A DNA stretch of 64,000 nucleotides from Candidatus Latescibacterota bacterium (lineage in GTDB: Bacteria; Latescibacterota; UBA2968; GCA-2709665), in assembly GCA_965226795.1 (NCBI GenBank), contig CBDDDZ010000005.1, positions 2,016,001-2,080,000 of the forward strand, given 5' to 3'. A model generated the notes under the pieces. It ran no database searches, had not been told where the DNA came from, and saw nothing but the letters and a program-made list of their open reading frames with translations. Of this stretch, positions 2,929-45,402 are shown piece by piece. Position 1 is the first letter of the stretch; each line of letters begins with the position of its first letter. The translations under genes were made by a program, and so were the position numbers.

Positions 2929-4311
2929 ATGACCCGCCCTCTTTCGCCCCCCCACCCCGATACGACCCCCTCCGGCGAGGCGCCGGTGCTTCCCCTGGTC
3001 TGGGCCATCGCATGGCCGGTGGTTGTCGCGTCGATGCTCGACGCCATGGAGGGCCTCATCGATATCTCCATGGTGGGGCAACTGGGTCCGGCCGCGATAT
3101 CCGCGGTGGGACTCAGCCGGCAGATCCTGTTCCTGACGATGGTGATGGCGATATCGGTCAGCACCGGATCGCGCACCCTGGTCGCGCAGCTGTACGGAGC
3201 CGGGCGCCGTGACGATCTCAGCAATACAGCGCAACACGCCATCGTGATGGGTATCCTGCTGTCCGCGGTCCTGGCCCTCGTGGGGAGCGCGGTCGCCCGG
3301 CCGGCGTTGGTCGTGATGGGCGCGCAGGACGACGTGCTCGCCCACGCCGTGCCGTTCCTCCGCATGTACTTTGTCGGCATCGTCTTCATGATGCCCAATT
3401 TCATCATCGGCGGAATCTTCGGCGGCGCCGGGGATACCCGGACGCCGTTGAAGATTTCGTGTCTCATCATCTGTCTGAAAATCCCGCTCACCTACGGCCT
3501 GATTTTCGGGGCATGGGGTCTGCCCCAGCTGGGGGTGACCGGAGCAGCCCTCGGCAGTATCGTCTCGCGGGCCATAGGCTGCATCGTCGGGGTCTCACTG
3601 CTTACGTCCGGCCGTTCGCGGGTGCATATGCGGTGGAATTGGCGCCTTCCCATCAACCGGGACATTATCGGGCGAATGATGCGGATTGGGGTTCCCGCTG
3701 GCATTCAGGGTTTTTTCCGAAACGGCGCCCGTGTTTTGATCTATCGTGTGGTGGGGTGGACGAGCCGGCCCACCGCCGCAACGGCCGCGCTGACCATCGG
3801 TTTGCAGATGCGAATGATCGGCATCATGCCGGCCCTGGCGTTTTCCATATCGGCAACCGCTCTGGTTGGACAACGATTGGGCGCGAGGCAGATACGCGAG
3901 GCCGAGCGCGTCGCCGAAAATATAATCCGGCTCGGCATGACGTTCATCACCGTGAGCGCAATTGTCATCTGCATCTTCGCCCGGGAAATTGTCGACCTGT
4001 TCACGGATTCCGCGGCAGTCATCGAGATAGGATACGTTATGCTCCTGTATTTTACGGTCGCCCAGGTCTTTTCAGCGTTGTCCATCGTCGCCGGGGGCGT
4101 CCTGGCCGGCGGCGGCGAGACAAGGCCTCTCCTCTACTATACGATTGTGGCGCAGTGGCTGCTCATGCTGCCCCTCTCCTACGTCCTGGCGTTTCTGTTG
4201 GATATGGATGTCGCGGGTATCTGGATCGCCTGGTTTATTGGCGGCGTCGCACAGGGCATTCTGGCCTGGGCTCGCTATCGGAAGGGCGCGTGGAAACAGA
4301 CGTTGATATGA
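2929..4311 (+). CDS. MATE family efflux transporter
   Basis: About 12 hydrophobic segments. Motifs DISMVGQLG, AQLYGA, GDTRTPL, LGVTGAALG, GQRLGA. Start could be 2884. Confidence 0.95.
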   Translation: MTRPLSPPHPDTTPSGEAPVLPLVWAIAWPVVVASMLDAMEGLIDISMVGQLGPAAISAVGLSRQILFLTMVMAISVSTGSRTLVAQLYGAGRRDDLSNTAQHAIVMGILLSAVLALVGSAVARPALVVMGAQDDVLAHAVPFLRMYFVGIVFMMPNFIIGGIFGGAGDTRTPLKISCLIICLKIPLTYGLIFGAWGLPQLGVTGAALGSIVSRAIGCIVGVSLLTSGRSRVHMRWNWRLPINRDIIGRMMRIGVPAGIQGFFRNGARVLIYRVVGWTSRPTAATAALTIGLQMRMIGIMPALAFSISATALVGQRLGARQIREAERVAENIIRLGMTFITVSAIVICIFAREIVDLFTDSAAVIEIGYVMLLYFTVAQVFSALSIVAGGVLAGGGETRPLLYYTIVAQWLLMLPLSYVLAFLLDMDVAGIWIAWFIGGVAQGILAWARYRKGAWKQTLI

Positions 4312-4608
4312 TGGCCTGTCCGGGAAATAGATCGCCGAAATTCGGATGACGCGTCGAGCAGCTGGCATCCTTCGACAGGCTCAGGAACCGGCGCCTGAGC
4401 CATGAGCCGCTCCCTGAGCTTGTCGAAGGGTCGGCGAAGGGCGTTGAAGAGCACCCAACAGGTTACGAAACGCGGGCATTTCGACAAGCTCAATGACCAC
4501 GTTTCGAATAGCCGTTTCCACAGCCTCACCACAGTCAGCGAAGGGAACGTAACGAGGCGGGATGAATCGGCGGCTGCATGGTGACATATTTCCGGGACGG
4601 GATACTCG
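4312..4608. mobile_element. MITE-like repeat copy 1 (degenerate, with nested REP-like hairpins)
   Basis: Left end ctgtccgggaaatagatcgccgaaattcgg and right end ggtgacatatttccgggacgggatactcg match the 63521-63731 element and are imperfect inverted repeats of each other. Confidence 0.7.
4369..4494. repeat. REP-like cluster (CTTCGACAAGCTCAG type)
   Basis: ccttcgacaggctcagg (4369) is inverted against cctgagcttgtcgaagg (4413). A third partial copy ttcgacaagctca lies at 4480. Confidence 0.75.
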
Positions 4609-4776
4609 TGCAGACGATGCGGCGTGGCGAAGACGAGGTATCGGGCGAGGATTCTGGGGATTCGGTTTGATGCAGATGAGCAGACAAGAATGTCCGCTCC
4701 ACCCTTTCGATATCTTGTTCGAGGGATCGCTCGAGCGTATCAACCATTTGAGAGAAAGGCGACTTAGGGCCTCGAT

Positions 4777-5327
4777 CTATGAAAATCCGTCGCCCCGAAG
4801 ATCCTTCAGCTTCGTCCCCATCTCTTCGATGCCAAGCGTGTTGTCCACCTGCCGGTACAACTGGTGTGCCTCTTCGAAAACCCGCCCTGCCTCCTCTTTT
4901 TTTCCAACACGCTCCAGAAGCATGCCGAAGCCCCGGAGTGCATTTCCAGCGAGTGCATCGGCGTTGGGTCGAGATCTCGGTACATCTGTATTGCCGACCG
5001 GTAATCACGCGCCGCGCCTTGCCAATCCGGAAGATCCCGGCAAACGTCCGCGACGTGACGAAGCGAGTGGGCCATCTTTTCGGTATGGTTCGCGGCCACG
5101 TAATGGTTGTAACCTTCCCGGTACAGTTGAAGAGCGCGTTCGGTGTTCCCCTGATCCCTCTCGAACTGCCCGTAGACGTGGGCGACCCTTCCCAGGGATT
5201 CGTGGCCGTCCTCGCCGCACAGTTTCGCCGCCTCGTCCGCGAGCCGCTTGCCCCGTTCGTAGTCCGCAACCCCCCTGGTCTTCCAGGCCTCGTCCAGAAG
5301 CTGAGCGATCCTCTGTTCTCTTGACAT
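4777..5327 (-). CDS. Tetratricopeptide-repeat protein, frameshifted at about 4967
   Basis: TPR-like helices run from MSREQ. Adding one C to GACCC restores NADALAGNALRGFGMLLERVGKKEEAGRVFEEAHQLY...GFS*. Confidence 0.75.
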
Positions 5328-5417
5328 TTCGTTCCTTTCTTCCTGTCGAGTGGCAACCGTAAGCGATTGTGCGGCGCCAAATTGGATGACTTCGGCCACG
5401 TTCTGCAGCTGGGGTTT

Positions 5418-6173
5418 CTAACGTTTCCTGGGCGTGTAGAACAGCAGGGTACCGATCCGCTCGTATCCGATTGAGGTATACAACAATGCACCCGTGTGGG
5501 TTGCGGTTAAGACAGCCCGGCGTGAACCATGCGTCCGGTCATCGCGGAGCATTCTGCACATCAACGCCCTTCCGACTCCTCGACGCCGGGCAGAGCGTAC
5601 CACGTGCATGTTCGAACACCACGTCGCCGAGTCCACCTCGATGCTTTGAACCCATCCCACGGGCTCACCGTTCTCGAGCGCAACATATTGCCTGAGCGGT
5701 GAGCCCGAGGAAAGATGTTCCGGCAGAATCTGTCTGACTCGCGTTGTCTTGTTCAATCTGTCCGCCATTTCGGCGGCGACGACACGTTCGATGGGCAGTG
5801 GATCCACCACACGAGGTATGCGCCGCAATCGGTGCACCATGACGGCTTCTGTTGTATTCAGGCGATAGTCGAGCCCTCTAAAGTCCGCTCGCATTCCGAT
5901 ATCGGACTCCCCGGTCGCGCAGATCGCGCAAATGCCGAACTGTCCGCGGGTGTTCATTCTGGCCACGCGGTCGATCTCGTCGGCATCGACGCCGTGAGCG
6001 ATCCACTCCTCCCGGCGGTACGCGCCGCGTTTTCTGGGCGCGTCCCGGACCACCCAGATTGAACCCTCCCGACTTGCCAGGTAAGGATGCGTGAAACTCC
6101 TGGTAAAACAATAACCGCGGGCGAAGACCTCCAGCGCCTTTTGCATGAGCACGTTATGGGGCACGGGTTTCAT
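5418..6173 (-). CDS. GNAT family N-acetyltransferase
   Basis: C-terminal motif A (HVVRSARRRGVGRALM) and LYTSIGY. Confidence 0.85.
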   Translation of the reverse strand: MKPVPHNVLMQKALEVFARGYCFTRSFTHPYLASREGSIWVVRDAPRKRGAYRREEWIAHGVDADEIDRVARMNTRGQFGICAICATGESDIGMRADFRGLDYRLNTTEAVMVHRLRRIPRVVDPLPIERVVAAEMADRLNKTTRVRQILPEHLSSGSPLRQYVALENGEPVGWVQSIEVDSATWCSNMHVVRSARRRGVGRALMCRMLRDDRTHGSRRAVLTATHTGALLYTSIGYERIGTLLFYTPRKR

Positions 6174-6396
6174 TCTCCCTTAATTCTCAATGACCTTGAA
6201 AGAGACAACGGTCCGGGTACGTGAAATCTGAACTGGACAGAGGACCGGACGCCTCGTAGTTTTCATTCACGGGGATCACGCCTACGGCCCTATCTCAAGG
6301 CTCCCGGCGATTTCGAGATCCAACACTATCAATCACACGATGCGAAGTAGGACGTCCACCCCATCTCCGGAAACGGATCCACGAAGCCAGCAACCA

Positions 6397-6873
6397 ATGT
6401 TCATTCAGATCCGCGCGGGCGATCGCCTCGGTGTCGTCTCCGACTCCCACGGACTCATCAGGCCGCAGGTACTGGAACTGCTGCAGGGCGTCCGCCTGAT
6501 TATCCATGCCGGCGACGTGGGGAAAATTTCGGTACTTGAGCAATTGGTACAGATCGCGCCGGTATACGCCGTCCGCGGAAACGTCGACCTGGATCCTCCC
6601 TGCGGCGACCTGCCCGAAAAACTCGTGATGCGCGCCGGAAGGCAGCGGATTCTCGTGACACACATCCTTGCCGACGCGGATGTCGCGGGTTTCGATCTTG
6701 CGGTGTGCGGCCATTCCCACATGCCGAAAATAAGCACCCTGGGATCGGCTTGCTGCCTGAATCCCGGCAGCATCGGGCCCCGCCGTTTTCGGCTTCCCGT
6801 CTCCATGGGGTTCATCACCATATCCCCGCAGGGCGCGCTTATTCCTGAACTGCGAACCGTAGAGATAGAATAG
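6397..6873 (+). CDS. Metallophosphoesterase, YfcE/MJ0936 type
   Basis: Motifs SDSHG, HAGD, VRGNVD, TH, GHSH, NPGS. Confidence 0.92.
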   Translation: MFIQIRAGDRLGVVSDSHGLIRPQVLELLQGVRLIIHAGDVGKISVLEQLVQIAPVYAVRGNVDLDPPCGDLPEKLVMRAGRQRILVTHILADADVAGFDLAVCGHSHMPKISTLGSACCLNPGSIGPRRFRLPVSMGFITISPQGALIPELRTVEIE

Positions 6874-33254: not shown

Positions 33255-36200
33255 TCACCCGGAAGCTCGCGTCTCGCCTGCCGGCTCGTAGGCGAGATCG
33301 AAAACGGTATCGGCCATCCAGCGCTTGAAGCCCGGGTTGTCCATGTACAGTTTGAACAGTTCGGTGTCGTCACGCATCACTCCAGTCATCACCCGAACCA
33401 GCGCCTTGTCGTGCTCGATCCGGGCATTCTGGCGGTCGGAGTTCTCCCGTGCGTTTCGGAACGCTGTGTCGGCGGCGACGCGGGCCGGTATGGTCTCTAA
33501 GATGAGTTGCTGCACGCGGTCCTCATCTTCCCATTGAATGTCACCATAATGCTCGTTGAAGACCCGAAGTATGCTGGAGAGTCGATCCAATTCCGGCTCC
33601 GGGTGATGCCCTCCGCCGGCTGCCGGTACCGGATCGATCTCGGCATTCTCGTCCGGCAACAGGAACCGTTGCATTGCCTGCTTCTCAACCCGATAGCTGT
33701 CGAGATCGATCGCATCAAGGACACCTTTGGAGAGATCCTCTTCCTCGGGAGCCGGCAACTTAGGGACCAGGAAGTTGAGGAAAATTGAACGCTTTTCCCA
33801 TGCGGGGTCGTTGTATGGAAGGATGGATGAAAGAAAGGCGTAGGTTCGCACGAAGGCTTTGGCCTTACCTTTGAACGCGACCTGGCCGTCTTCGTCCAGC
33901 TCCCGCCGATAGACCGCTACGCAAGCGTCCAGGATTGGATCGAGAAGGTCGCGTTCCTCTCCGGCCAGGTAGCGCCGGACAAACTCGTCGATCTGCACCT
34001 CGGAATAGACCTGCGCGCCGTCCAGGTCCGCCTGCAGGTCGTGCAGCTTGTTGGGGTCGGTCTCGTCGGCCAGGATCGTCGCCCGGTAAAAGTCCGCGAA
34101 CGCTTCGCGGATGGTGTCGGTGTCGTTGAAAAAGTCGAGCACGAACACATCGTGTTTCCTGGGATGCGCCCGGTTGAGGCGAGACAGGGTCTGCACGGCC
34201 CTTATTCCTGACAGCGTCTTGTCCACGTACATCGTGTGCAGCAGGGGTTCATCGTAGCCGGTCTGAAACTTGTCCGCGCACACCAGGAACCGGTAAGGAT
34301 CCTCCTGGAATCGCTTGGCGATCCGGGTGGAAGGCAGGCCGTTCAGCGACGCCTCGCTTACCCTGGCGCCGCCGTAGTCGTGCTCGCCGGAGAAGGCGAC
34401 CAGAGCCTCGTAAGAGCTCTTGCGCTCCCTGAGATAGTCGCGGATGGCATGGAAGTACTGGATCGCGCGCTCGATGCCATTTGTGACAACCATCGCCCGC
34501 GCCGCGCCGCCGATCTTTCCCTGCTTCAGCACCTGGTCATGAAAATGGTCGACCATGATCTCGGCCTTGAGGCGAATCGCGTGGTCGCTGCCCTCCACGA
34601 AACGGCGCAGCTTCTTTTGTGCTCTGCTAGCGTCGAACTCCGGGTCGTCTTCAACGGTCTTGGCAAGCTTGTAATAGCTGGCCACCGGCGTGTAGCGGGC
34701 GAGAACGTCGAGGATGAATCCTTCCTGGATCGCCTGCTTCATCGTGTAGCTATGGAAGGCGCGATGCCTCACCGTACCGTCGGGCTGCGGGTCCGCGGCG
34801 CCAAAGATCTCGAGCGTCTTGTTTTTGGGCGTGGCGGTAAACGCGAAGTAGCTGGCGTTGGGAAGGAGCTTTCGCGATTCCATCAAACGGTTAATCCTGT
34901 CTTCAAAGGTATCCTGATCGTCTTCTTCGCCCGCTTCCGACAGCGCCTGCGCCATGGCTGCGCTGGTGCGGCCCCCCTGGCTCGAGTGGGCTTCATCGAT
35001 GATGATGGCGAAGCGCCTCCCACGCTGCTCGTTGCCGATCTCGTCCAGGATGAAAGGGAACTTCTGGACCGTGGAAATGATAATCTTCTTGCCGCTTTCG
35101 ATGAACCGGCGCAGATCGCCCGAGCCGTCGGCATGCCCTACCGTCGCCGACACCTGGGCGTATTGTTTGATCGTGTCGCGGATCTGACGGTCCAGGATGA
35201 GCCTGTCCGTTACGATGATGATCGAGTCGAAAACGGGAGCATCGTCCTTCTCCAGCCGGATCAGTTGGTGGGCGAGCCAGGCGATGGAGTTGCTCTTGCC
35301 GCTACCGGCGGAATGATGGATCAGATAGCGCTGACCCGCACCGCGGGCGCCCGCGTCGGCCAGCAGGCGGCGCACCACGTCGAGCTGATGGAAGCGCGGC
35401 CAGATTTGGGTACTCCGCTTCCTGCCGCTCTTTTCGTCCTTCGACGCCACCACCTGGGCGTAATTCTCCAGGATGTTGGTGAGACTCTCCCGCGTGAGTA
35501 CTTCACGCCAGAGATAGGAGACCGCAAGACCGTGCGGGTTGGGCGGGTTGCCCGCGCCGTCGTTCCAGCCGCGGTTAAAGGGAAGAAACCAGGACGCCTT
35601 ACCCTTTAGGTGTGTACAAAAACGCGCCTCACGCTCATCCAATGCGAAGTGCACGATGCACCGCCCGAATTCAAACAACTTTTCGCGAGGGTTCCGGTCC
35701 TTTCGGTACTGCCAGACCGCATCGTCCACCGTCTGTTTGGTGAGGCTGTTTTTCAGCTCAAACGTGAACACCGGCAGCCCGTTAATGAACAGCCCTATGT
35801 CTAGCGCCCGCTGCGCCTCGTCCCGGCTGTAGCGAAGCTGCCGCGTGACGGTAAAGCGGTTCTGCTCGAACAGCTCCTGTGCCTGCGGGTTGCCGGCCGA
35901 CGGGGTGCCGTAGAACAGATCCAGGTGGAACGATTGGTGCTTGATCCCGTTGCGAAGCGCGTCGATGGTGCCGCGCTTGCTGATTTCGCCCTGAAGCCGG
36001 GTCAGGAACGCGCGCCGCACCGGACCGTCTTCGGAAAGCGCCAGCGCCTCGGCGGCCTCCGGCTGGGTGTCGCGCAAAAATGCCGACAGTTGCACCAGAT
36101 CGACGCAGTACTCACGGTCGTAGTCGTGGGGATTGCCGCAACTCCACCCGACACCGCCATAACCGGCAGCGGGTTCTGCCACTGTGCCCGTAGAGGGGGG

Positions 36201-36272
36201 ATCGCACGTATGGCCGGCCAGCGCCGTGCAGATGAGGCGTTCGAGGCCGCGTTCGGAGGTATCGGTGGGCAT
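33255..36272 (-). CDS. hsdR: Type I restriction endonuclease subunit R
   Basis: Nuclease motif D..LFINGLPVFTFELKN, Walker A HSAGSGKS, IIDEAHSSQ, FTATPK, KFQTGYDEP, QTLSRLNR. Confidence 0.97.
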   Translation of the reverse strand: MPTDTSERGLERLICTALAGHTCDPPSTGTVAEPAAGYGGVGWSCGNPHDYDREYCVDLVQLSAFLRDTQPEAAEALALSEDGPVRRAFLTRLQGEISKRGTIDALRNGIKHQSFHLDLFYGTPSAGNPQAQELFEQNRFTVTRQLRYSRDEAQRALDIGLFINGLPVFTFELKNSLTKQTVDDAVWQYRKDRNPREKLFEFGRCIVHFALDEREARFCTHLKGKASWFLPFNRGWNDGAGNPPNPHGLAVSYLWREVLTRESLTNILENYAQVVASKDEKSGRKRSTQIWPRFHQLDVVRRLLADAGARGAGQRYLIHHSAGSGKSNSIAWLAHQLIRLEKDDAPVFDSIIIVTDRLILDRQIRDTIKQYAQVSATVGHADGSGDLRRFIESGKKIIISTVQKFPFILDEIGNEQRGRRFAIIIDEAHSSQGGRTSAAMAQALSEAGEEDDQDTFEDRINRLMESRKLLPNASYFAFTATPKNKTLEIFGAADPQPDGTVRHRAFHSYTMKQAIQEGFILDVLARYTPVASYYKLAKTVEDDPEFDASRAQKKLRRFVEGSDHAIRLKAEIMVDHFHDQVLKQGKIGGAARAMVVTNGIERAIQYFHAIRDYLRERKSSYEALVAFSGEHDYGGARVSEASLNGLPSTRIAKRFQEDPYRFLVCADKFQTGYDEPLLHTMYVDKTLSGIRAVQTLSRLNRAHPRKHDVFVLDFFNDTDTIREAFADFYRATILADETDPNKLHDLQADLDGAQVYSEVQIDEFVRRYLAGEERDLLDPILDACVAVYRRELDEDGQVAFKGKAKAFVRTYAFLSSILPYNDPAWEKRSIFLNFLVPKLPAPEEEDLSKGVLDAIDLDSYRVEKQAMQRFLLPDENAEIDPVPAAGGGHHPEPELDRLSSILRVFNEHYGDIQWEDEDRVQQLILETIPARVAADTAFRNARENSDRQNARIEHDKALVRVMTGVMRDDTELFKLYMDNPGFKRWMADTVFDLAYEPAGETRASG

Positions 36273-36280
36273 TGTGAACC

Positions 36281-36694
36281 CTACTGGTCCGTAAACGGGT
36301 TTATGACCCGGAGGCCATCGTAGTCCTGTTCTGTACTCATATCCTCGGTGTACACGGCATCGCAACCCAGGGCGCGGGCTGCGGCGAGAATTGCGCCGTC
36401 CCAGTAGGACAGCCGGAAACGTTGGCTGATGGCGATGGCCTCGAGAAAAACGTCCATCGTCATGGTCTGAATCCGGAACAGCAGAATCGGCTCCAGGAAT
36501 TGCAAAGCTCTATTGCCAGAAAGACTGCGGATCCGTGTCGGCCGGGTGGCTTGGTGATAGAACTCCTGCAGCACCTGAACGGACGCGGCGAGGTCGGGTT
36601 CTGTCAGGACTTCCAGCGCCCGCGCCCGCTTGTCGGCCTCCTCCGGGACCTCGCTGACAGCGTACAGCAGGACATTGGTATCTACGAATCGCAT
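36281..36694 (-). CDS. vapC: PIN domain (VapC-like) toxin
   Basis: Motifs FVDTNVLLYA, QVLQEF, SYWDGAI, YTED, NPF. Confidence 0.92.
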   Translation of the reverse strand: MRFVDTNVLLYAVSEVPEEADKRARALEVLTEPDLAASVQVLQEFYHQATRPTRIRSLSGNRALQFLEPILLFRIQTMTMDVFLEAIAISQRFRLSYWDGAILAAARALGCDAVYTEDMSTEQDYDGLRVINPFTDQ

Positions 36695-37044
36695 GGCGAG
36701 ACTCTGAGTGCTTCAGAGATGCTGCGCTGCCGCTCGCGCTCGGCGACAGCCTCGGCCCTTGCCGCGACGCGGTCGTACAACGCTTCTCTGGGCAGGTTGT
36801 CGGACATCCGCAACCCAATACCCTGTCTATCGAAGTCCGCGAGCACTTCCCGCAGCAGCCTGCACCGACGCTGATAGATGGTTTCAATAGACTCTGCACT
36901 GGCTTCGCCCCCCGCATCCGGCTCCGCTGCCAGGTGTCTCAAGTAGTCTCGCACGAGGGCCGAAACCGATGTGTCCATCTCTGCCGCACGGATACGTGCG
37001 AGCCGGTGTGTCTGCTCGTCGACGGATACGGTGATGTTCCTCAT
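36682..37044 (-). CDS. RHH-type antitoxin (VapB-like), intact copy
   Basis: MRNITVSVDEQTHRLARIRAA..DTSVSALVRDYL and LPREALYDR. Overlaps the PIN gene. Confidence 0.88.
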   Translation of the reverse strand: MRNITVSVDEQTHRLARIRAAEMDTSVSALVRDYLRHLAAEPDAGGEASAESIETIYQRRCRLLREVLADFDRQGIGLRMSDNLPREALYDRVAARAEAVAERERQRSISEALRVSPCDS

Positions 37045-37103
37045 AATCACAGCCTCACAGTTTCTGTCTTGCGCACTATAGGCATCTATTGCCAGATGGG
37101 CAA
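37045..37103 (-). promoter_or_regulatory. Antitoxin promoter/operator
   Basis: TTGCCC-17-TATAGT. Tandem CTGTGA motifs before the ATG. Confidence 0.7.
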
Positions 37104-37216
37104 CACCTGCGGCGGCGAGGGAGCTTTGTGGTGAAAGGTTGAAGTTGCGTATGGCGGACCCGCAGGTTGACCCGGCAAGCGGCGGCTCCTGTTGGACGGG
37201 TTTCGCACTGCTTAGG

Positions 37217-37249
37217 TTCAAGGTCGTATTCGGAGCTGTCGCTGTTCAT
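37217..37249 (-). pseudogene. Relic of an hsdR 5' end
   Basis: MNSDSSEYDLE versus HsdR MPTDTSERGLE. Starts 4 nt after the DUF5615 stop. Confidence 0.5.
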
Positions 37250-37253
37250 GCTG

Positions 37254-37586
37254 TCACTCGCCTCTCATAGGGATGGGGACTTCCCGGACTTCTCCGGGCT
37301 GAATCCCGTCAAGGACGGCGCGAATATCCTCAATCCTTGGCTCGATGAGCGGCCACCGGTTCGCCCCAAGAACGATCAGTGCGAAGCTACGGCTTCCGAT
37401 GTTCTGTTGGTATGGCATGTTCCTGTCCGCAGTAATCACAACGCCATACCCTGCTTCTTCCGCCCGGTCCAGCAATTCGCCATTGACAAGCGTTGCCCAC
37501 CCGTGCTCTTCAGCCACGTCAACATCGTGGCCGACGAGGTGACGGCGAAGCTGCCGTGGCGCATTGTGGTCAAACAGTATTCGCAT
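37254..37586 (-). CDS. DUF5615-type PIN-like toxin
   Basis: Motifs MRILFDHN, GW..L.NGELL..AE, ITADRN..YQQN. Confidence 0.88.
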   Translation of the reverse strand: MRILFDHNAPRQLRRHLVGHDVDVAEEHGWATLVNGELLDRAEEAGYGVVITADRNMPYQQNIGSRSFALIVLGANRWPLIEPRIEDIRAVLDGIQPGEVREVPIPMRGE

Positions 37587-37818
37587 GCGAGACCCTGGCG
37601 ACCTTGGCATCAAGGTCTTGCACTACGAATTCCAGAACCGCCCGCACCTTTGCTTCGTCTACCCCGCCGAACCATTCGATAAAGTCGTGGACCGTTGCGC
37701 CCTCCGCAAGGTTGCCGAAAAGGGCCGACACAGGCAGCCGGGTCCCGGTGAACACCCAGGCCCCGCTCACCCTGCCAGGCACGCTCTCCACCGCCGGGCA
37801 CTTGCTCCAGTCCGTCAT
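37570..37818 (-). CDS. DUF433 antitoxin
   Basis: SGAWVFTGTRLPVSALFGNL..GATVHDFIEWF. Overlaps the toxin gene. Confidence 0.92.
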   Translation of the reverse strand: MTDWSKCPAVESVPGRVSGAWVFTGTRLPVSALFGNLAEGATVHDFIEWFGGVDEAKVRAVLEFVVQDLDAKVARVSHANTV

Positions 37819-38138
37819 ACGGTCACCTCCTTGCTCTTCTGCCGATTCTGCGGCGTCCGCCTGGCGTCTGTGGTCAAACCGTAACCATGTAGTGGTTCAC
37901 CGCAACCGAATCCGCCGCCGTTGGCCGTAATCTTCTCAATGACCTCGTGCAATGTCCTGCGACGGCGTTCGATCTCCTCCTCTACGCTTAGCCCGCTGTT
38001 CACTGTGCTGGCGCGGTCCGCAACCAGACTCTTCAGGTAGTCCCGCACCAGAGCCGATACCGACGTGTCCAACTCCGCAGCACGGATACGTGCGAGCCGG
38101 TGTGTCTGCTCGTCGACGGATACGGTAATATTTCTCAT
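37815..38138 (-). pseudogene. Second RHH antitoxin copy, 3' end replaced by a hicB fragment
   Basis: N-terminus nearly identical to the 37044 copy. 37870-37901 is identical to 43721-43752. No cognate PIN gene follows. Confidence 0.75.
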
Positions 38139-38197
38139 GGTCACAGCCTCACAGTTTCTGTGTGACACAATATACGCATTAATCGGTCGATGTGCAA
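38139..38197 (-). promoter_or_regulatory. Antitoxin promoter/operator (paralogous copy)
   Basis: TTGCAC-17-TATATT. CACAG-aaa-CTGTG palindrome plus tandem CTGTGA. Confidence 0.7.
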
Positions 38198-38223
38198 CAC
38201 CTGCGGCGGCGTGGGAGGTCCGT

Positions 38224-38250
38224 TAGGGGCGACCGGCCGGTCGCCCCTAC
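38224..38250 (-). repeat. GTAG-family REP 1 (supplies the hsdS stop codon)
   Basis: GTAG-GGGCGACCGGCCGGTCGCCC-CTA palindrome on the minus strand. Confidence 0.9.
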
Positions 38251-39650
38251 ATCGGTGGATGCTCGCTTGTGTACTCTTCTGCCGATTCCTCGTCGTCGCC
38301 CGAGACGTCTTCCTCAGGCAGTTCAGCCGCCGCCTTGCGCACATCGAGCTTGCCCGTGACGACATCGGCGATCAGGCGGGTGCGGTATTCTTGGAGGAGG
38401 GCGATCTCCCGGTGGGCACTCGCGATCGCTCCAGCCAAAGTTACGGTGGCTTTCTTGAATGCACTAACGATAGCCTCCTGTTCAGCTACCGGGGGAAGTA
38501 CAATGACCATCATATTCAGATGTTTGGGCCCAAAGTGCTCAATTCCCACTCCGGACTTTGCTAAATCAATCTGAACCTGAAACAACCGTGAATTCATGAA
38601 TAGTCGAACATATTCCATCACAGTTTGCTGTGATCGTGCCCAAAGTCGGATGATCCCAGTATAAGGAATGGCACCAGCTACCTCCGGACTCGCCAGTGCG
38701 ACCGCACCAGTACTCGCGCTCGCACTGAGCAAATAGTCGCTTTCCTTGACCGCAAAATGACTCCATCGCTTACCGACCATATCTGGATCCAGATAATTGC
38801 AACCATTCAACGTCGCCACCTCTTTGCGAAAACACGAGATTCGAAGCAGCGGCACTCCGGACTCGCGAAAATCCGCTGCCATGATACCGGGGCCTTCCTG
38901 AAAGCCGACGCGCTGCTTGAACGGAATAACTTCCCAATGCTTTGGCACTTCTCCTAGCCACTCCACCCTGGAGCGTTTATGGGCCGGGTAGGGCTGGCCG
39001 GTTCGGACGTCGATCTGGCCCGTGACGGCCTGGTGGATAATGGCCTGCTTCTGCTCCTCCAGCAGCGCAATCAGCTTCTGCCTGGTGCGGATGTAGCGCC
39101 GGATGCGCCGGTCGGCGTGGTCGAGGAAGCGGACGATGGCGGCTTGTTCGGGGAGGGGCGGGAGGGGAATCTTCTGTGACCCAAAGCTTTCGAAACGAAA
39201 GTCAGTTGACCGCTCGCGAATTCCCTTCGTGAGTGCCTGGATCCACTGGCTCCTTGCCATCTCGCGCAGGGCGTGGGCAAAGTACTCAGCTCTCGCTGTT
39301 GGTCCAGGTTCGCAAACAGAGTAGACCGGCGTCCCCTTGCCATTGGAGTCCGCCACACCGATCGCGCCCGCGAAGGCGTCCATCCCGTGGATCACAAGGT
39401 CACCACACCGAATGCCCTGGTAACCGATCTCCTTCAAGGACTCTGTAAAGCCACGCACACGACGATTCTTGCGAAGGGTAACCGCGCCGTCACGAAAGCA
39501 GGTTACAACTTCGTCAGCTTCCCTGACAGGCCGGTCCATCTTGCGAAACAACCACTTTCCCCGCTCGACTTCCCAATGCACCGGCACCCGCCCCAACCAC
39601 TCAATACTGGAGTCCTTGTAGGCAGGATAGCGTTTGAGATCTAAGGTCAT
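38247..39650 (-). CDS. hsdS: Type I R-M specificity subunit S
   Basis: Repeated conserved blocks YKDSSIEWLG.VP.HWEV and HKRSRVEWLGEVPKHWEV, PPLPEQAAIV and PPVAEQEAIV, LIADVVTGKLDVR. Two TRDs. Confidence 0.96.
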   Translation of the reverse strand: MTLDLKRYPAYKDSSIEWLGRVPVHWEVERGKWLFRKMDRPVREADEVVTCFRDGAVTLRKNRRVRGFTESLKEIGYQGIRCGDLVIHGMDAFAGAIGVADSNGKGTPVYSVCEPGPTARAEYFAHALREMARSQWIQALTKGIRERSTDFRFESFGSQKIPLPPLPEQAAIVRFLDHADRRIRRYIRTRQKLIALLEEQKQAIIHQAVTGQIDVRTGQPYPAHKRSRVEWLGEVPKHWEVIPFKQRVGFQEGPGIMAADFRESGVPLLRISCFRKEVATLNGCNYLDPDMVGKRWSHFAVKESDYLLSASASTGAVALASPEVAGAIPYTGIIRLWARSQQTVMEYVRLFMNSRLFQVQIDLAKSGVGIEHFGPKHLNMMVIVLPPVAEQEAIVSAFKKATVTLAGAIASAHREIALLQEYRTRLIADVVTGKLDVRKAAAELPEEDVSGDDEESAEEYTSEHPPM

Positions 39651-39660
39651 CATCACAATT

Positions 39661-39903
39661 CACCATTGTAGGGGCGACCGGCCGGTCGCCCGTGCGCCGT
39701 ATGGATCCTGGCCGTACATAACGGCAGGATTCTCCGGGTCTGCCGGCCATCTTCCAGGGTTCTCCGCGATGTATTGCCGAATCCGATCCAGCGCGGATTC
39801 GTTCCGGAAAACGTGTTCGTAGTAATTGCGCTGTCAGACCGGTATATCGGGTGTGCCGCGCATGGCGTTGATGCGTTTGGTACGGTCTGAGGTCAAAGTT
39901 CAT
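39661..39903 (-). pseudogene. Chimera: hsdS-like start (MNFDLRPY) joined to a RAYT 3' fragment and REP 2 (39668-39691)
   Basis: 39661-39880 is a diverged tandem copy of 39910-40128, with TGA replacing the W of WQRNYYEH. Confidence 0.85.
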
Positions 39904-39908
39904 CACTA

Positions 39909-40496
39909 TCACCAATGTAGGGGCGACCGGCCGGTCGCCCGTGCGTCGAGTGGATCCTGGACGTCCCTGATGGCAGGATTCTCCGGGTCTTCAGACCATC
40001 CGGCCGGGTTATCTGCGATGTATTGCCGAATCCGGTCCAGCGCGGATTCATGCCGGATGACGTGTTCGTAGTAATTGCGCTGCCAGACCGATGCACCGGG
40101 CGTGCCTCGCATGGTGTTGATGCGTTTGGTCGTGGCAGATTTGAATCCGGCCATCATCGCGCCGAGTGAACTGGGTCGCGGCCCACTGCGGGCGACCGGC
40201 CGGTCGCCCCTACAGCGTTTGTTGACAATAATGACGATGCCATGAACGTGGTTCGGCATGACAATCCATGCGTCCAGTTCGATCTCGATGCGGATCCGTG
40301 CAGAATTTAGCCATTCCTCTGCGGCCATCCGGCCAAATTCGCTCAACTCCACCTCACCATCATTCACTTCGCCAAACAGTAATTCCTGGCCCTTTGTGCA
40401 GACTGTGATAAAGTATGCGCCGGCTCGTGAATAGTCGTAGTTGCGCAATCGGATCGACCGACGGTGACGTTTCTCCGGATCGCAGGAGGTGTTCAC
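39909..40496 (-). mobile_element. REP-associated tyrosine transposase (RAYT / Y1 HUH) containing REP 3 (39917-39940) and REP 4 (40190-40213)
   Basis: Motifs RRSIRLRNYDYS..GAYFITVC, HUH motif MPNHVHGI, WQRNYYEHVIR and catalytic RQYIADNP. Confidence 0.93.
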
Positions 40497-40615
40497 TATG
40501 CCCTCAGAATTTCGTGCAACAATTGCTCAGACACTCTCTCCATTGCCGAAATGTCGGCCCGGATCTCTTCCAGCGTGAGCAGCGGCTCAGGATCAGATTT
40601 GAGATCTAAGGTCAT
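40496..40615 (-). pseudogene. 39-aa chimera: hsdS start joined to an hsdM C-terminus
   Basis: MTLDLK (19 bp identical to 39633-39651) plus PLLTLEEIRADISAMERVSEQLLHEILRA*, compared with HsdM PMRTLEEIRADIVALEKETEGLL. Confidence 0.85.
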
Positions 40616-40629
40616 CGAATTATACACCA

Positions 40630-40845
40630 ATGTAGGGGCGACCGGCCGGTCGCCCTATGCCGAATGGATCCTGGACGTACTTGATAGCGGGATTCTCCGG
40701 GTCTTCCGCCCATCCGGCCGGGTTATCCTCGTTGTATCGCCGAATCCGGGGCAGGTTCACTATGTGCCGGAAGTTCCAGCTTGCCAGCACGTCGACCCCG
40801 GCCAGGGTCGCCGTAGCGATATGCAGGGCATCGCTCGCCCTTGCG
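40630..40845 (-). pseudogene. Chimera: PIN fragment joined to a RAYT C-terminus and REP 5 (40632-40657)
   Basis: DALHIATATLAGVDVLASWNFRHIVNLPRIRRYNE is read in frame into DNPAGWAEDPENPAI. Confidence 0.85.
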
Positions 40846-40863
40846 CTTTAGTTTCCCTTCGGG

Positions 40864-41079
40864 TCAGCCGTCGCGACGATCTGTTGGCATGTCCTGCGTC
40901 GATTTGCGTATCCGCGCAGCCAATGCTTCCAGCCTGGGGTCGGAATACCGCCTGGAATTGAACCACTCTACCTGTTCCTCGATGGTCATGTCGGCGGTCT
41001 CGGCGGCAATGCGGGCGCGGGCGTCGCGCATGAACCGGACGCAGTCAAACTTCTTTTCAACGCGAGTCGCTTCAGTCAT
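40864..41079 (-). CDS. Small putative antitoxin downstream of the PIN domain
   Basis: 71 aa containing KKFDCVRFMRDAR. ATGACTGA overlap with the hsdM::PIN stop. Confidence 0.7.
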   Translation of the reverse strand: MTEATRVEKKFDCVRFMRDARARIAAETADMTIEEQVEWFNSRRYSDPRLEALAARIRKSTQDMPTDRRDG

Positions 41080-43510
41080 GGACGATTTCCTCCGGCGTGC
41101 GAATGTCGATGGCAGAGTATCCATTCTGACGATTGACCTCGTTGCAGGCCCTGATGCGCCGCCAGTTCACCATGTGCCTGAAATTCCAGCTTACCAGGAC
41201 ATCGGCTCTGGCAAGGGTGGCGAGGGCGATGTGCAGCGCATCGGTCCGATTGGCCCCACCCAGGGCCTCACCCGAGATGTAGGCATCGGCGAGCTTTCTT
41301 GCTTCTCTTGAAACGGCGAGCAATTCCGTGTGTTCCGGGGGAACGATGCTGGCCACCTGCCTGATGGAAGGCGGAGCATCCGCCAGTTCATCCAGAGTGA
41401 CGGCCGAGAGGAGCATCGTGGCTTCCCCCCGGCGAAAGACCTCGAAGAGCTGCTTCGATTGCTCGCGGAATTCATTGTCATGGCAGCCGCCGATCACCGA
41501 GGTATCCACGTAGATGCGCGGCTTGCCGTACACAACCGACGGTTCGCGCACCATCGGCAGATCCCCGAGCAACCCCTCCGTTTCTTTCTCCAGCGCCACG
41601 ATGTCCGCCCGGATCTCCTCCAGGGTCCGCATAGGCTGTGGTTTGTAGAAATATCGGGTGAAGCTGATCTCGTAGCCGATTCTTATGCTGTCTGCTTGGT
41701 ACCAGGCATCAGCGGCATAGGGCAGAACTTCCCGCCGCAGGAAAGCTTCAATGCCACCCTCCTCCTGCAGCGGAATCTGCTCGGTGTCGCGCAGGTCGGT
41801 GTCGGGTTCGTACTCCACCACGACGGGCTTGCCGTTTACAGTAGCTTCGAACCGGCCGCGCAGCGGGTCGGCCTTAGTGTCTCTCTTATGGATCTTCTTG
41901 ATGATGTGCGGCGCGGTGTCGCTGCGCTCGCCGCTCTCCTTCAGCTTCTTAATCTCGGCGGCCTTGTAAGCGCGGCTGGGGTCGGCACCTTCGAGCCGCA
42001 GCGGCCGTTCGACCATCACCTTCCAGTAGCCGAAGGCGGCGTTGTCGAAGATCTTGCTCTGCTCGCTTTCCTCAAAGGCGAGGAAGGTGTCGCAGATGCG
42101 CTGGATGTCCTCCTCGCCGAGTTCGCAGTTCTTCTTGCCCAGGTTCTTGCGCAGAGGCCGGTACCACCCGGTGGCGTCGATCAACTGCACCTTGCCCCGG
42201 CGATGCTCCGGCTTGCAGTTAGTGAGTACCCAGACGTAGGTGGCGATGCCGGTGTTGTAGAACATGTTGAGCGGCAGGGCGACAATCGCCTCCAGCCAGT
42301 CGTTCTCGATGATCCAGCGGCGGATATTGCTCTCGCCCTGGCCGGCGTCGCCGGTGAACAGGGAACTGCCGTTGTGCACCTCGGCGATGCGGCTCCCGCC
42401 CTCCTTCATCTTGGAGAGCTTGTTGGCGAGAAAGAGCATCTGGCCGTCGCTGGAGCGGGTGACCAGAGAATATTCGGGATCTGCGGCGTGCTCGATCACG
42501 AAGCGCGGGTCCCGCATTTCCTTCTTGCCGCCCATGCGCTCCAGATCGGTCTTCCAGCTCTTACCGTAGGGCGGATTGGAGAGCATGAAGTCGAACTCGC
42601 GGGACGGGAAGGCGTCGTTGGCCAGGGTGGAGTGCTCGGGGCCGCCCACGATGTTGTCGGCGGCGTCGCCTTCACCCTTCAGCAGCAGGTCGGCCTTGCA
42701 GATGGCGTAGGTTTCGGCATTGATCTCCTGGCCGTAGAGATGGGTGGAGACCTGCCTGCCTTTTTCGGCGGCGAGTTGCTGAAGCACGTCTTCGGCCACG
42801 GTCAACATGCCGCCGGTGCCACAGGCTCCGTCGTAGATCAGGTAGGTGCCGGACTTGATCTGGTCGGCGACGGGCAGGAAGACCAGCTTCGCCATCAGGG
42901 TCACGGCGTCGCGCGGGGTCCAGTGCTCGCCCGCCTCCTCGTTGTTCTCCTCGTTGAAGCGCCGGATCAGTTCCTCGAAGATCGTCCCCATGCCGTGGTT
43001 GTCAAGGCCGGGGTGCCTGACCGTGCCGTCGGCATTGCGCACCGGGGCCGGGCTCAGGTTGATGTCGGGCGAGGTGAGTTTTTCGATCAGCGTGCCCAGG
43101 GCGTCGGCCCTGGACAGCCGCGAAACCTGGTTGCGGAACTCAAAGTTTTCGAGGATGTCCTGGACGTTGGGCGAGAAACCGTCAAGCCAGGCCCGGAAGT
43201 CGGCCTCAAGCTGCTGGCGATTGGCGCGGGCGCGCAGGTCGCGCAGGGTGAACGTGGAGGTATTGTAGAAGTCCTGTCCCGCCGCCTGCCGCAGGGGCTC
43301 GTGTTGGTCGACCAAGCCAATTTTGTCGAGGGAGGCCTGCATGTCCAGGACGTTCTGCTTGCTATCCTCCAGTACCGCGTCGAGCCGGCGCAGAACGGTC
43401 ATCGGCAGGATCACGTCGCGGTACTTTCCGCGCACGTACAGATCGCGCAGCACGTCGTCTGCGATTCCCCAAATGTAGTTTGCGATCCAGTTAAGGTCGG
43501 CATTACTCAT
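41072..43510 (-). CDS. hsdM: Type I R-M methyltransferase subunit M with C-terminal PIN domain fusion
   Basis: Motifs GEHWTPRD, YDGACGTGGML, SNPPY, FYNTGI, GYEISFTRYFY. Then without a stop IYVDTSVIGG...EL...DALHIALA...VSWNFRHMVN. Confidence 0.95.
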   Translation of the reverse strand: MSNADLNWIANYIWGIADDVLRDLYVRGKYRDVILPMTVLRRLDAVLEDSKQNVLDMQASLDKIGLVDQHEPLRQAAGQDFYNTSTFTLRDLRARANRQQLEADFRAWLDGFSPNVQDILENFEFRNQVSRLSRADALGTLIEKLTSPDINLSPAPVRNADGTVRHPGLDNHGMGTIFEELIRRFNEENNEEAGEHWTPRDAVTLMAKLVFLPVADQIKSGTYLIYDGACGTGGMLTVAEDVLQQLAAEKGRQVSTHLYGQEINAETYAICKADLLLKGEGDAADNIVGGPEHSTLANDAFPSREFDFMLSNPPYGKSWKTDLERMGGKKEMRDPRFVIEHAADPEYSLVTRSSDGQMLFLANKLSKMKEGGSRIAEVHNGSSLFTGDAGQGESNIRRWIIENDWLEAIVALPLNMFYNTGIATYVWVLTNCKPEHRRGKVQLIDATGWYRPLRKNLGKKNCELGEEDIQRICDTFLAFEESEQSKIFDNAAFGYWKVMVERPLRLEGADPSRAYKAAEIKKLKESGERSDTAPHIIKKIHKRDTKADPLRGRFEATVNGKPVVVEYEPDTDLRDTEQIPLQEEGGIEAFLRREVLPYAADAWYQADSIRIGYEISFTRYFYKPQPMRTLEEIRADIVALEKETEGLLGDLPMVREPSVVYGKPRIYVDTSVIGGCHDNEFREQSKQLFEVFRRGEATMLLSAVTLDELADAPPSIRQVASIVPPEHTELLAVSREARKLADAYISGEALGGANRTDALHIALATLARADVLVSWNFRHMVNWRRIRACNEVNRQNGYSAIDIRTPEEIVHD

Positions 43511-43539
43511 CGTTGTACTGCTCCTCGAAATAGGACTAC

Positions 43540-43700
43540 GAGTCGCTCGGCAGTTTCAAACCTCGATGGATTCTTCTCTAACGAGATGAAGGCGAATCAC
43601 CCCTCGGGCGCCGCCTTCGTCAAAGTAACATCGCACCGCATCTTGGACCGAGTTTTTCAGGCATTCCCAATTATCTTGCTAGGTGAAGATGCCGTAGCCA
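43540..43700 (-). pseudogene. Remnant of a HicB-like antitoxin plus the first codons of its HicA-like partner
   Basis: GYGIFT*QDNWECLKNSVQDAVRCYFDEG...IRLHLVREESIEV*, overlapping TTG-KLPSD. Confidence 0.65.
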
Positions 43701-43724
43701 GGCGATTCGGCCGGGCTCGGGTGG

Positions 43725-43952
43725 TCAAACCGTAACCATGTAGTGGTTCACCACGACCGACTCCGCGGCCTGATCATCATCCCGCTCAAGCTCGTCGAGA
43801 TACAACCTGATCGCGTCGGCGACCAGGTCACGCACCTCTTCCTCCGTTTTCCCCGCCACGCCAACGCCGGGAAGTTCCGGAACATACGCCCCATACGCGC
43901 GGGGTCCGTATTTCTCTACAATGACCAGATACTCAGCCTGCGCCATCTCCAA
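43725..43952 (-). CDS. hicB: HicB family antitoxin
   Basis: YGAYVPELPGVGVAGKTEEEV...AI.LYL. Confidence 0.92.
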   Translation of the reverse strand: MEMAQAEYLVIVEKYGPRAYGAYVPELPGVGVAGKTEEEVRDLVADAIRLYLDELERDDDQAAESVVVNHYMVTV

Positions 43953-44151
43953 CCTCCGTGTCGTTCTCTTTCAAACCGGCCTGTTTGAGCACCTGGCTAA
44001 GCGTGCCCGCCTTCATGTCTGCGTTGGGATTTCCAGCAACCACTACGATGCCAGACCTGGTAGAGTGTCGCATCACCCGGTGGCTCCCGCGGCGACGGAC
44101 CTCGTACCATCCGTCCTCTTGCAACTGTCTCAACACGTCACGGACCTTCAC
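43933..44151 (-). CDS. hicA: HicA family toxin
   Basis: Motifs LQEDGWYEVRRRGSH and GTLSQVLKQAGL. Confidence 0.93.
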   Translation of the reverse strand: MKVRDVLRQLQEDGWYEVRRRGSHRVMRHSTRSGIVVVAGNPNADMKAGTLSQVLKQAGLKENDTEVGDGAG

Positions 44152-44163
44152 GTCAAGATTATA
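44152..44163 (-). promoter_or_regulatory. TATAAT -10 box 6 nt upstream of the hicA GTG (probable leaderless transcript)
   Basis: Minus strand reads TATAATcttgacGTG, with no SD sequence. Confidence 0.65.
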
Positions 44164-44226
44164 CCCCTGTGAAAGGAACCCGCGGAAAGATAATCGCTGA
44201 CAGGAAAATGTAGATCACCGCTGACC

Positions 44227-45402
44227 TCATCCCCGGTTACCTCCCCCCCACGCGGACGAGAACTGTTCGCCCTCCAGAAACCTGCCGGGACGGAACGGGT
44301 GCAGATCGAACGCAGGCGTCCGGCCGAGAATCACGTCGCTCAGCGAATCGGCAATCGGCGGACCCAGCTTGAACCCGTGTCCGCTCCCGCCGAAAAAGGC
44401 ATAGTAGCCCTCCAGCCCCGGTTCGGATCCGACCAGGGGATGCCAGTCGTCCGTAATCGTATAGACGGACGCCCAGCCCTTTACGTATTCGCCCTGCCTG
44501 AACGCCGGCACCCGTTCAAAGGTCCCCGTCTCGATGCGCCGGCGCGTGGGTTCATCAAGGACGGGATCGTACGCGTCGACGTCCATCGGCTCCACCTCTT
44601 TGGGAAAGCTCAAGCCGGCCAGCAGTCCGTCGTCGCCGTCGGGACGAAAATAGACCCGCAGATTGGGATCGGAAACCACGGGAAACCGGCCGAATCCCTC
44701 CGGCAATCGCAATACCAGATCGCTCTCCCGGCTCCATCGCACCGAATAATTCAACCCCGCGGACAATCCCATCCGGCGGCCCCAGGGTCCTGCGGCGTTG
44801 ATCACCATTTCCGTCCGGACTTCGCCCGCGTCGGTATCCACCCCGGTCACACGGCTGCCGGACAGCCGAATCTGCGTTGCTCCCACGCCCTCGTAACACA
44901 CCAGTCCCCAGTCTTTCGCCCGCGTTACCAGGTTCCGTACCGTCTTAACGGGGTCCGCGTAACCGGAAGCGGGTTCATAGATACCGCCAACGATCCCTTC
45001 TGTATTCACGCCCGGGACGAGTTCCAGGATCTCATCCGTACCCGCCTCCACGGCGCGGGTGTGGTTCCGCTGTTCCGCCGCAAGCACCGCTCTACCTGCG
45101 GCGGCGGTATGCTCACCCAGTAGACACATGTACCCCGTATTGCGAAAGTCACAGTCTCCCCCCAGCGCCTCCTCCCCGTTCGCAAACATCTCCAGCGCCT
45201 TCATGGACAATTGGATGGTCAGATCGTTCGAGTAAAAGGTGCGGATCACCGCGGCCGAATGCCCCGTGCTCACGGCTGCCAGCGTCCGCTTTTCCAGAAG
45301 CACGACGGCGCCGAGACCCTTCTTTGCCAGAAAATGGGCTATGCTGGCACCCATGATGCCGCCGCCGATCACCACGGCGTCTGCCACCTTTACCATCTGC
45401 AT
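44227..45402 (-). CDS. FAD-dependent oxidoreductase (DAO/sarcosine oxidase beta-like)
   Basis: Motifs VIGGGIMG, INAAGPW, TDDWHPLVG, GSGHGFK. Confidence 0.92.
   Translation of the reverse strand: MQMVKVADAVVIGGGIMGASIAHFLAKKGLGAVVLLEKRTLAAVSTGHSAAVIRTFYSNDLTIQLSMKALEMFANGEEALGGDCDFRNTGYMCLLGEHTAAAGRAVLAAEQRNHTRAVEAGTDEILELVPGVNTEGIVGGIYEPASGYADPVKTVRNLVTRAKDWGLVCYEGVGATQIRLSGSRVTGVDTDAGEVRTEMVINAAGPWGRRMGLSAGLNYSVRWSRESDLVLRLPEGFGRFPVVSDPNLRVYFRPDGDDGLLAGLSFPKEVEPMDVDAYDPVLDEPTRRRIETGTFERVPAFRQGEYVKGWASVYTITDDWHPLVGSEPGLEGYYAFFGGSGHGFKLGPPIADSLSDVILGRTPAFDLHPFRPGRFLEGEQFSSAWGGGNRG

Follow-up and report, generated by a model that had tools for sequence, protein, structure and literature searches.

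The window analysed here is a stretch of 64,000 nucleotides from the genome of a Candidatus Latescibacterota bacterium (NCBI GenBank assembly GCA_965226795.1, contig CBDDDZ010000005.1, positions 2,016,001 to 2,080,000 of the forward strand). On its reverse strand, hsdM, the methylase gene of a type I restriction-modification (R-M) system, continues in frame into a PIN domain of the VapC fold. The fusion gene (41072..43510) is an open reading frame (ORF) without internal stop and encodes 812 amino acids. The HsdM part (residues 1–650; 41561..43510) carries the motifs DGACGTGGM and NPPY and ends in a C-terminal helix (residues 630–643). It is followed by a linker of low model confidence (residues 651–663; 41522..41560), which contains an internal ATG at 41554-41552, and by the PIN domain (residues 664–812; 41075..41521) with conserved D669, E708, and D757. 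The PIN codons for YVDTSVIGGC (41483..41512) form a putative crossover point for the exchange of PIN types, as indicated by DNA identity windows. A gene for a 71-residue candidate antitoxin (40864..41079), also on the reverse strand, overlaps the fusion stop by 8 nt, and its product belongs to no Pfam or NCBIfam family.

The 812-residue protein is matched in Pfam by HsdM_N (residues 9–145) and N6_Mtase (residues 171–483), and its HsdM part by the PADLOC family MTase_I (E 6e-237). The PIN tail is weak at the sequence level, with a PIN_3 match (E 0.005) under the curated Pfam cut-off; PIN and PIN_3 are matched in 34 of 45 relatives (Pfam, E≤0.1). The AlphaFold model of the PIN domain is confident (pLDDT 93.7), and VapC toxins are its top structural matches (Z 13.0, rmsd 2.5, 127 residues), in agreement with Foldseek. 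The DTS, EL, and DALH motifs are present, with D669, E708, and D757. A PIN domain with conserved acidic residues is fused to HsdM, as the original prediction had it, and we predict that this tail is an RNA-cutting VapC-like toxin. Solved structures searched by sequence with the PIN profile gave no meaningful match, and PADLOC contains no family matching the PIN tail or the small protein. The pair shares with VapBC the VapC fold and a small overlapping partner gene (PMC5499597), and three acidic residues are conserved, with Asn at the fourth acidic site of many VapCs. It differs in that the toxin precedes its partner and is joined to HsdM; the partner, from an unnamed family without a match to a Pfam DNA-binding antitoxin, is encoded downstream and not upstream. 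In the model of the full-length fusion (mean pLDDT 63, pTM 0.50) the methylase core is poorly resolved, and the packing of the domains is therefore not readable from it. Residues 644–660, at the linker, have pLDDT under 50.

At least 174 distinct fused proteins were found, as 174 of 266 collected proteins met the fusion pattern and four more were recognized by eye. E708 is present in all 174 and D757 in 171, and D669 is invariant, partly owing to how the set was picked. The NPPY motif is kept in 150 of 150 full-length fusions and motif I in 149. Median dN/dS values, calculated for 47 loci from pairs with dS of 0.05–0.8 that are not independent of each other, are 0.15 for the PIN (96 pairs), 0.19 for HsdM (287 pairs), and 0.31 for the small gene (90 pairs). 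Judged from these ratios and the conserved residues, purifying selection acts on the PIN and the small gene, and the methylase and PIN halves of the fusion both look functional.

The fusion is real, as had been claimed, since no stop or indel occurs at the junction in other sequencing runs. DNA contigs from four runs of four studies (X2, X15, X8, and X9), one of which may be the window's own sample, bridge positions 41540–41600 without gaps. The X2 contig spans 40636–41690 with 2 differences from the window, and the X15 contig, from a run labelled as sponge metagenome, spans 41492–41642 with none. Contigs of three RNA-library runs (X12, X14, and X17) also bridge 41540–41600 without gaps; they show neither strand nor level, and DNA carry-over in them is uncontrolled. 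With other runs bridging the junction and many homologous fusions at hand, we rejected an assembly or sequencing artefact. Promoter and terminator scans of the locus gave results at chance level, and Rfam had no match at 36000–44500. The VREP...Y word of the linker is one that occurs in R-M and toxin-antitoxin proteins. The word is not enriched in the window's genome (12 occurrences, 16–18 in shuffles), and no mention of it turned up in a literature search.

The HsdM-PIN fusion recurs across dozens of bacterial species. A junction-spanning query (residues 560–812) recovered at least 120 proteins with 98–100% coverage and 60–100% identity, and among the PIN profile matches listed (120 of 194) all long proteins were HsdM fusions or pieces thereof. 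Annotation pipelines call the fused proteins simply N-6 DNA methylases. A DNA-level scan of GTDB, in which fusion was not required, yielded 78 loci kept from the best 80 of 261 stretches, with L082 and L083 excluded from the counts as duplicates of L009 and L053. At 55 GTDB places an hsdM end directly precedes a PIN, and 52 of these junctions are in frame without a stop. The remaining three comprise one relic (L050) and two multiply broken copies. The homologous fusions that a domain-architecture search was to reveal, according to the original prediction, thus exist in number. A one-off loss of a stop codon was rejected given the in-frame junctions, the single PIN branch described below, and the 174 fused proteins.

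By record titles, the fused loci belong to Latescibacterota, Gemmatimonadota, Pseudomonadota, Rhodothermota, and Acidobacteriota, and the HsdM of the window groups with Latescibacterota records. We take the lineages of these five phyla to be typical sponge symbionts. The fusion occurs in 9 of 14 genomes of the window's genus and in 13 of 151 genomes phylum-wide. No fusion was present among the best 80 of 592 stretches from general metagenomes. Eleven of the best 150 cluster representatives span the junction, and the rest are mostly standalone PINs of about 150–160 amino acids. All 52 fused PINs fall into one 55-row branch (SH-aLRT 94, from a quick tree of few columns), whose three unfused rows lie in or beside hsdM loci or relics. 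Because all fused PINs share one branch and most of the other representatives are standalone PINs, the fusion is one lineage of a large standalone family. None of 92 matching plasmid records covers 80% of the junction query. The standalone PIN occurs in 13 viral loci, and in a weak search none of 35 viral hsdM-end loci matched beyond residue 52 of the junction query. Among fused loci with at least 7 kb of downstream sequence, hsdS is present in 44 of 44 and hsdR in 32 of 44.

The small gene was predicted to be a coupled antitoxin, and its behavior agrees with that. It lies behind all 52 intact fusions, preceded in 51 by a ribosome-binding-like stretch, and, among standalone PINs with enough sequence downstream, behind 76 of 88 (at a low score threshold). 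Evolutionary distances of the PIN and the small gene are correlated (rho 0.70, or 0.67 given HsdM), more closely than those of HsdM and the small gene (0.30) or HsdM and the PIN (0.29), and a distant small gene occurs in none of 81 locus pairs with close PINs. The small gene stays open where the PIN has decayed by a stop, frameshift, or deletion (P0145, P0153, P0173, P0188, L049, and L071), and in L080 it persists behind the unfused hsdM of genome G007. The small gene thus co-varies with the PIN and outlasts its decay, as an antitoxin would, and is likely the antidote. We found no convincing Pfam family for the small protein, and no RHH, AbrB, Phd, or HTH match in 45 members; a protein atlas search returned unnamed clusters only, with a recognition score below the mark of the tool. 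It therefore defines a candidate antitoxin family that is unnamed and, by homology searches, widespread. No phage-borne mimics of it were found in a weak search with a single-protein query.

Several observations concern the wider PIN and small-gene family. The window's genome (G000) also holds standalone PIN and small-gene pairs at C3:560562-561186 and C5:2337455-2338100, with PINs at 47% and 25% identity. L041:9141-10022 contains a natural in-frame fusion of the PIN and the small gene, with a relative (P0340) among the cluster representatives. Many flanks of the standalone loci L098–L177 translate to words that resemble integron attC read-through. A family PIN also ends the 428-residue protein P0327, in which Pfam found the PIN only; we take the N-terminal part of this protein to be HNH-like.

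The PIN and the small gene form a swappable cassette. Near-identical HsdMs carry PIN types that are only 50–65% alike, and PINs are more than 35% apart in 47 of 116 locus pairs with HsdMs less than 12% apart, although these pairs are not independent. The HsdM tree largely tracks host groups, whereas the PIN tree mixes them. Compared with L007, L008, and L053, the window has 70–100% DNA identity across the hsdM end and linker, 96–100% over the YVDTSVIGGC codons (30-nt window), and 43–66% in windows 60 to 270 nt into the PIN. This pattern suggests exchange at the conserved YVDTSVIGGC motif. L009 holds two complete cassettes in tandem.

Downstream of the cassette, the window contains remnants of other alleles, both on the reverse strand. 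A PIN 3′ relic of a different type (40722..40847), about 67% identical over 42 amino acids and without a start, is followed by a relic at 40496..40615, in which hsdS-start-like codons are joined to an unfused hsdM 3′ end. The hsdM-end relic reads MTLDLK...PEPLLTLEEIRADI...LLHEILRA and then stops at 40498-40496, so the unfused end with a stop codon placed near 40496–40590 by the original prediction is indeed there. This relic, together with the start of the adjoining gene for a REP-associated tyrosine transposase (RAYT)-like protein, matches the unfused hsdM end of genome G013 (85% over 285 nt). A relic in L008 aligns with a stretch of G007 that covers the unfused hsdM end, the PIN fragment trailing it, and the small gene (88.5%, 563 nt). 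From these alignments, the relics are best read as resident ends pushed downstream by an incoming piece of hsdM end, PIN, and small gene. An X9 contig links position 41645 directly to 40586, the arrangement expected if the cassette were excised between the hsdM end and the relic; it is a single contig whose 34-nt side is at 90% likeness and may stem from a relative.

Extra small genes, often of other types, are present in 10 of 51 fused loci. Eleven extra copies from 7 loci are 77–91% identical to the cognate gene of another locus and 35–47% to that of their own. In the two larger types of these orphan small genes dN/dS is 0.19–0.30. Cassette swapping, the keeping of non-cognate small genes, and the reading of the relic as the displaced end of an unfused allele go beyond the original prediction. 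Two loci show further rearrangements. In L054:7806-12400 an unfused hsdM is preceded by a fused-lineage PIN, which six copies of the small gene surround, and in L084 (G016, 3773-6470, reversed coordinates) an unfused hsdM is followed by three hsdM-end relics with intervening ORFs, a series which suggests that the hsdM 3′ end generally attracts insertions.

The genes downstream of the fusion, as far as hsdR, all lie on the reverse strand. The RAYT-like gene (39909..40496; NF047646, E 2e-17, under the curated cut-off) is followed by hsdS (38247..39656), a set of toxin-antitoxin-like genes in the hsdS-hsdR gap (36281..38168; RHH-like, DUF433, DUF5615, RHH-like, and PIN), and an open hsdR, in which nuclease and helicase motifs are present (33255..36365). 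Both hsdS and hsdR share the operon of the fusion, as in type I R-M systems. At 38213–40754, the RAYT-like gene in the hsdM-hsdS gap is accompanied by partial duplicates of itself and by a REP-like palindrome in five copies; the palindrome has 15 exact copies genome-wide, and RAYT pieces occupy the same gap in many relatives from the genus. A HicA-HicB pair (43725–44151) lies just upstream of hsdM. The segment 27339–33258, beyond hsdR and on the same strand, contains genes for a type II-like methylase and for an ATPase resembling MORC or histidine kinases, as well as a 608-residue ORF. In L034:8878-10581, hsdS continues in frame into DUF433.

Taken together, HsdM-PIN is a real, selected, multi-phylum fusion with a candidate antitoxin, a predicted toxin, and a cassette layout resembling that of polymorphic toxins, as read from the genomes compared here. 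We hypothesize, with about even confidence, that the PIN and the small gene are a selfish module for addiction and competition between alleles, carried along by hsdM; toxin and antidote together likely impose a cost on any loss or exchange of the restriction locus. A standalone toxin-first pair would have fused once to the hsdM 3′ end, with its own start codon mostly lost. The toxin would be produced as an extension of HsdM to which translation of the downstream antitoxin is coupled, and hsdM would serve both for expression and as a recombination landing site. As this extension follows the helix that binds HsdS in solved type I methylases, the toxin is probably tethered to the M2S complex. A new toxin-antitoxin type could enter with incoming DNA that crosses over within the conserved hsdM 3′ end or the YVDTSVIGGC codons. 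When the cassette is lost or replaced, the antitoxin would be gone first, and leftover HsdM-PIN would poison the cell unless the new allele also carries the antitoxin of the old type. Orphan antitoxins acting as such anti-addiction devices would explain the retained non-cognate small genes; anti-addiction modules are summarized in passages of PMC12548467. The type I system would thereby gain post-segregational killing, which according to PMC3874152 is lacking in the type I systems examined and is argued to act in competition between chromosomal alleles. An addiction role, raised in the original prediction, is plausible as a function.

Several findings weigh against this interpretation. Addiction alone needs no fusion, and other toxin-antitoxin pairs (DUF433-DUF5615 and RHH-PIN) sit unfused in 34 of 44 fused loci. 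Loss of the tail is frequent, since 82 of the 120 closest HsdM relatives are without an intact PIN, and within the genus the orthologue is unfused in 3 genomes at 92–94% identity. The fourth acidic site of many VapCs is Asn (N776) in all 174 fused proteins. The extra small genes could be debris of repeated insertions, and the low dN/dS of orphans may partly predate their orphaning; one orphan (dN/dS 0.77) is interrupted by a stop, and no orphan is present at the locus in the window. HsdS proteins are less than 60% alike in 50 of 67 pairs with PINs more than 80% alike. A given PIN type thus goes with freely varying hsdS and does not fix a specificity, and the idea that the cassette protects a single hsdS specificity found no support. 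In tests on the pneumococcal type I tvr locus, its Doc-Phd-like pair did not act as an addiction system (PMC6265443).

Alternatively, the PIN carried by the M2S complex may be a second line of phage defence, a role compatible with addiction, which we consider possible at a low level of confidence. An anti-restriction protein (Ocr, ArdA, or Stp-like) that upsets the complex, or depletion of the small partner at host shut-off, would release the PIN, and the infected cell would stall or die; we put this trigger forward just as tentatively. The presence of hsdS in every fused locus with sufficient sequence, and of hsdR in most, agrees with such a role. The fusion point comes after a helix whose counterpart in PacII and other type I methylases packs with HsdS into a four-helix bundle (PMC9613975). 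By our analysis, helix 630–643 of the fusion would correspond to this HsdS-bundle tail of solved methylases. The length of the spacer is kept within 2 residues, and the hsdM-hsdS gaps of relatives contain other defence-like ORFs. A passage of PMC12707154 describes PrrC and PARIS as guardians of R-M systems. However, the same PIN and small-gene pair occurs without R-M genes in most standalone loci, which makes its control independent of the complex. As standalone PINs have their own small partner without an R-M system, the R-M complex is probably not the silencer. The low-confidence linker of the model gives no sign of docking, no PADLOC family covers the PIN or the small protein, and the non-cognate small genes are unexplained by a guard role alone.

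The comparison with PrrC, which underlay the guard or abortive-infection role in the original prediction, found no support. In 76 of 88 standalone loci, the PIN is accompanied by its dedicated small partner and by no R-M genes. PrrC is an anticodon nuclease with ABC-ATPase and HEPN parts, and HsdM-PIN has no PrrC-type ABC ATPase and HEPN on a separate gene. Like PrrC in EcoprrI, the PIN is a predicted RNase within a type I R-M operon, between hsdM and hsdR (sections of PMC12707154 and PMC3506569). However, PrrC is a separate protein silenced by the Hsd complex, whereas the PIN is covalently attached to HsdM and comes with a dedicated small partner. Other defence genes are also embedded in type I R-M loci (bioRxiv 10.1101/2024.01.29.577857), and the idea of coupling immunity to dormancy or suicide is long-standing (PMC3506569). 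In section 16 and the Fig. S7 legend of PMC5499597, PIN genes located within type I operons are described as separate genes, with no mention of a fusion.

We also speculate, again with low confidence, that HsdM-PIN is an intracellular polymorphic toxin system with a core R-M subunit as carrier, in which HsdM tails of several toxin types are exchanged across phyla of one host-associated community by way of the conserved hsdM end, orphan-antitoxin arrays record and win R-M allele contests, and the toxin, seated on the HsdS-binding helix, also fires when phage proteins attack the complex. Polymorphic toxin loci hold toxin cassettes with immunity genes, as outlined in part of PMC4287609. HsdM-PIN shares with MafB, CdiA, and Rhs a conserved N-terminal carrier, a variable C-terminal toxin swapped at a conserved motif, a cognate small gene directly behind, and downstream toxin fragments with further small genes. 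The layout of orphan toxin fragments and small genes is present in 10 of 51 loci, where the small genes have a putative immunity role. In contrast to those systems, the carrier is a cytoplasmic DNA methylase subunit without a secretion or trafficking domain, a single PIN family is involved, and most downstream fragments correspond to the last 30–40 codons and cannot rebuild a toxin, L009 excepted.

It is improbable that the PIN is made mainly apart from HsdM, through the internal start or by clipping, as an ordinary toxin-first pair that happens to share the hsdM reading frame. The original prediction had pointed to the ATG at 41554 with a weak GGGGA. The ATG is there, but its ribosome-binding-like stretch (−8.0 kcal/mol) is not weak when compared with that of hsdM's own start (−8.1 kcal/mol). 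Such a stretch accompanies an ATG in 7 of 52 linkers, mostly in the window's clade, versus 1.7% of hsdM windows, and 50 of 52 linkers hold some ATG, GTG, or TTG, when 65% would be expected from hsdM windows. The good ribosome-binding-like stretch makes a second, shorter product possible in the window's clade. However, an ATG falls within the 20-codon linker window in 25 of 52 fused loci versus 32% of same-size hsdM-internal windows, Met is present in the linker of 87 of 174 fused proteins, and the linkers of L018 and L047 lack any start codon. Standalone PIN relatives mostly start a few codons ahead of the first strand, a position at which most fused genes have no start. If the PIN were a separate gene, an upstream stop or frameshift would do it no harm, yet nearly all junctions are open and in frame, with linkers that diverge widely in sequence and have three spacer lengths. 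The internal start is not conserved family-wide, and exclusive production of the PIN from it, named in the original prediction as refuting the fusion, does not fit the family.

Just as improbable is that the module kills nothing and that a weak or inactive PIN regulates the locus (RNA or rearrangements) or rides as a tolerated passenger that spreads through recombination with hsdM, as the Asn at the fourth site and the frequent tail loss could suggest, because the three acidic residues are nearly invariant, the PIN dN/dS is low, and no intact fused PIN occurs without the small gene, which fits a harmful product. A precedent for regulation is the Phd-Doc-like tvrAT pair of the SpnIV locus, which likewise lies in a variable part between hsdM and hsdR; it is unfused, from other families, and recombinase-linked, and the portion of PMC6265443 concerned reports a regulatory role rather than addiction.

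The component parts of the fusion are of known kinds. We found no report of an HsdM-PIN or HsdM-VapC fusion in the full-text literature, a search that left most subscription papers outside its coverage; the supplements of bioRxiv 10.1101/2024.01.29.577857 may list such cassettes. The recurring physical link between an immunity enzyme and a predicted suicide toxin would make the coupling of immunity and suicide testable in one protein, and fused and unfused alleles exist naturally at 92–94% identity. The family also allows the role of chromosomal toxin-antitoxin pairs in allele competition to be tested in nature, as a single genus contains several toxin types together with orphan antitoxins that match them.

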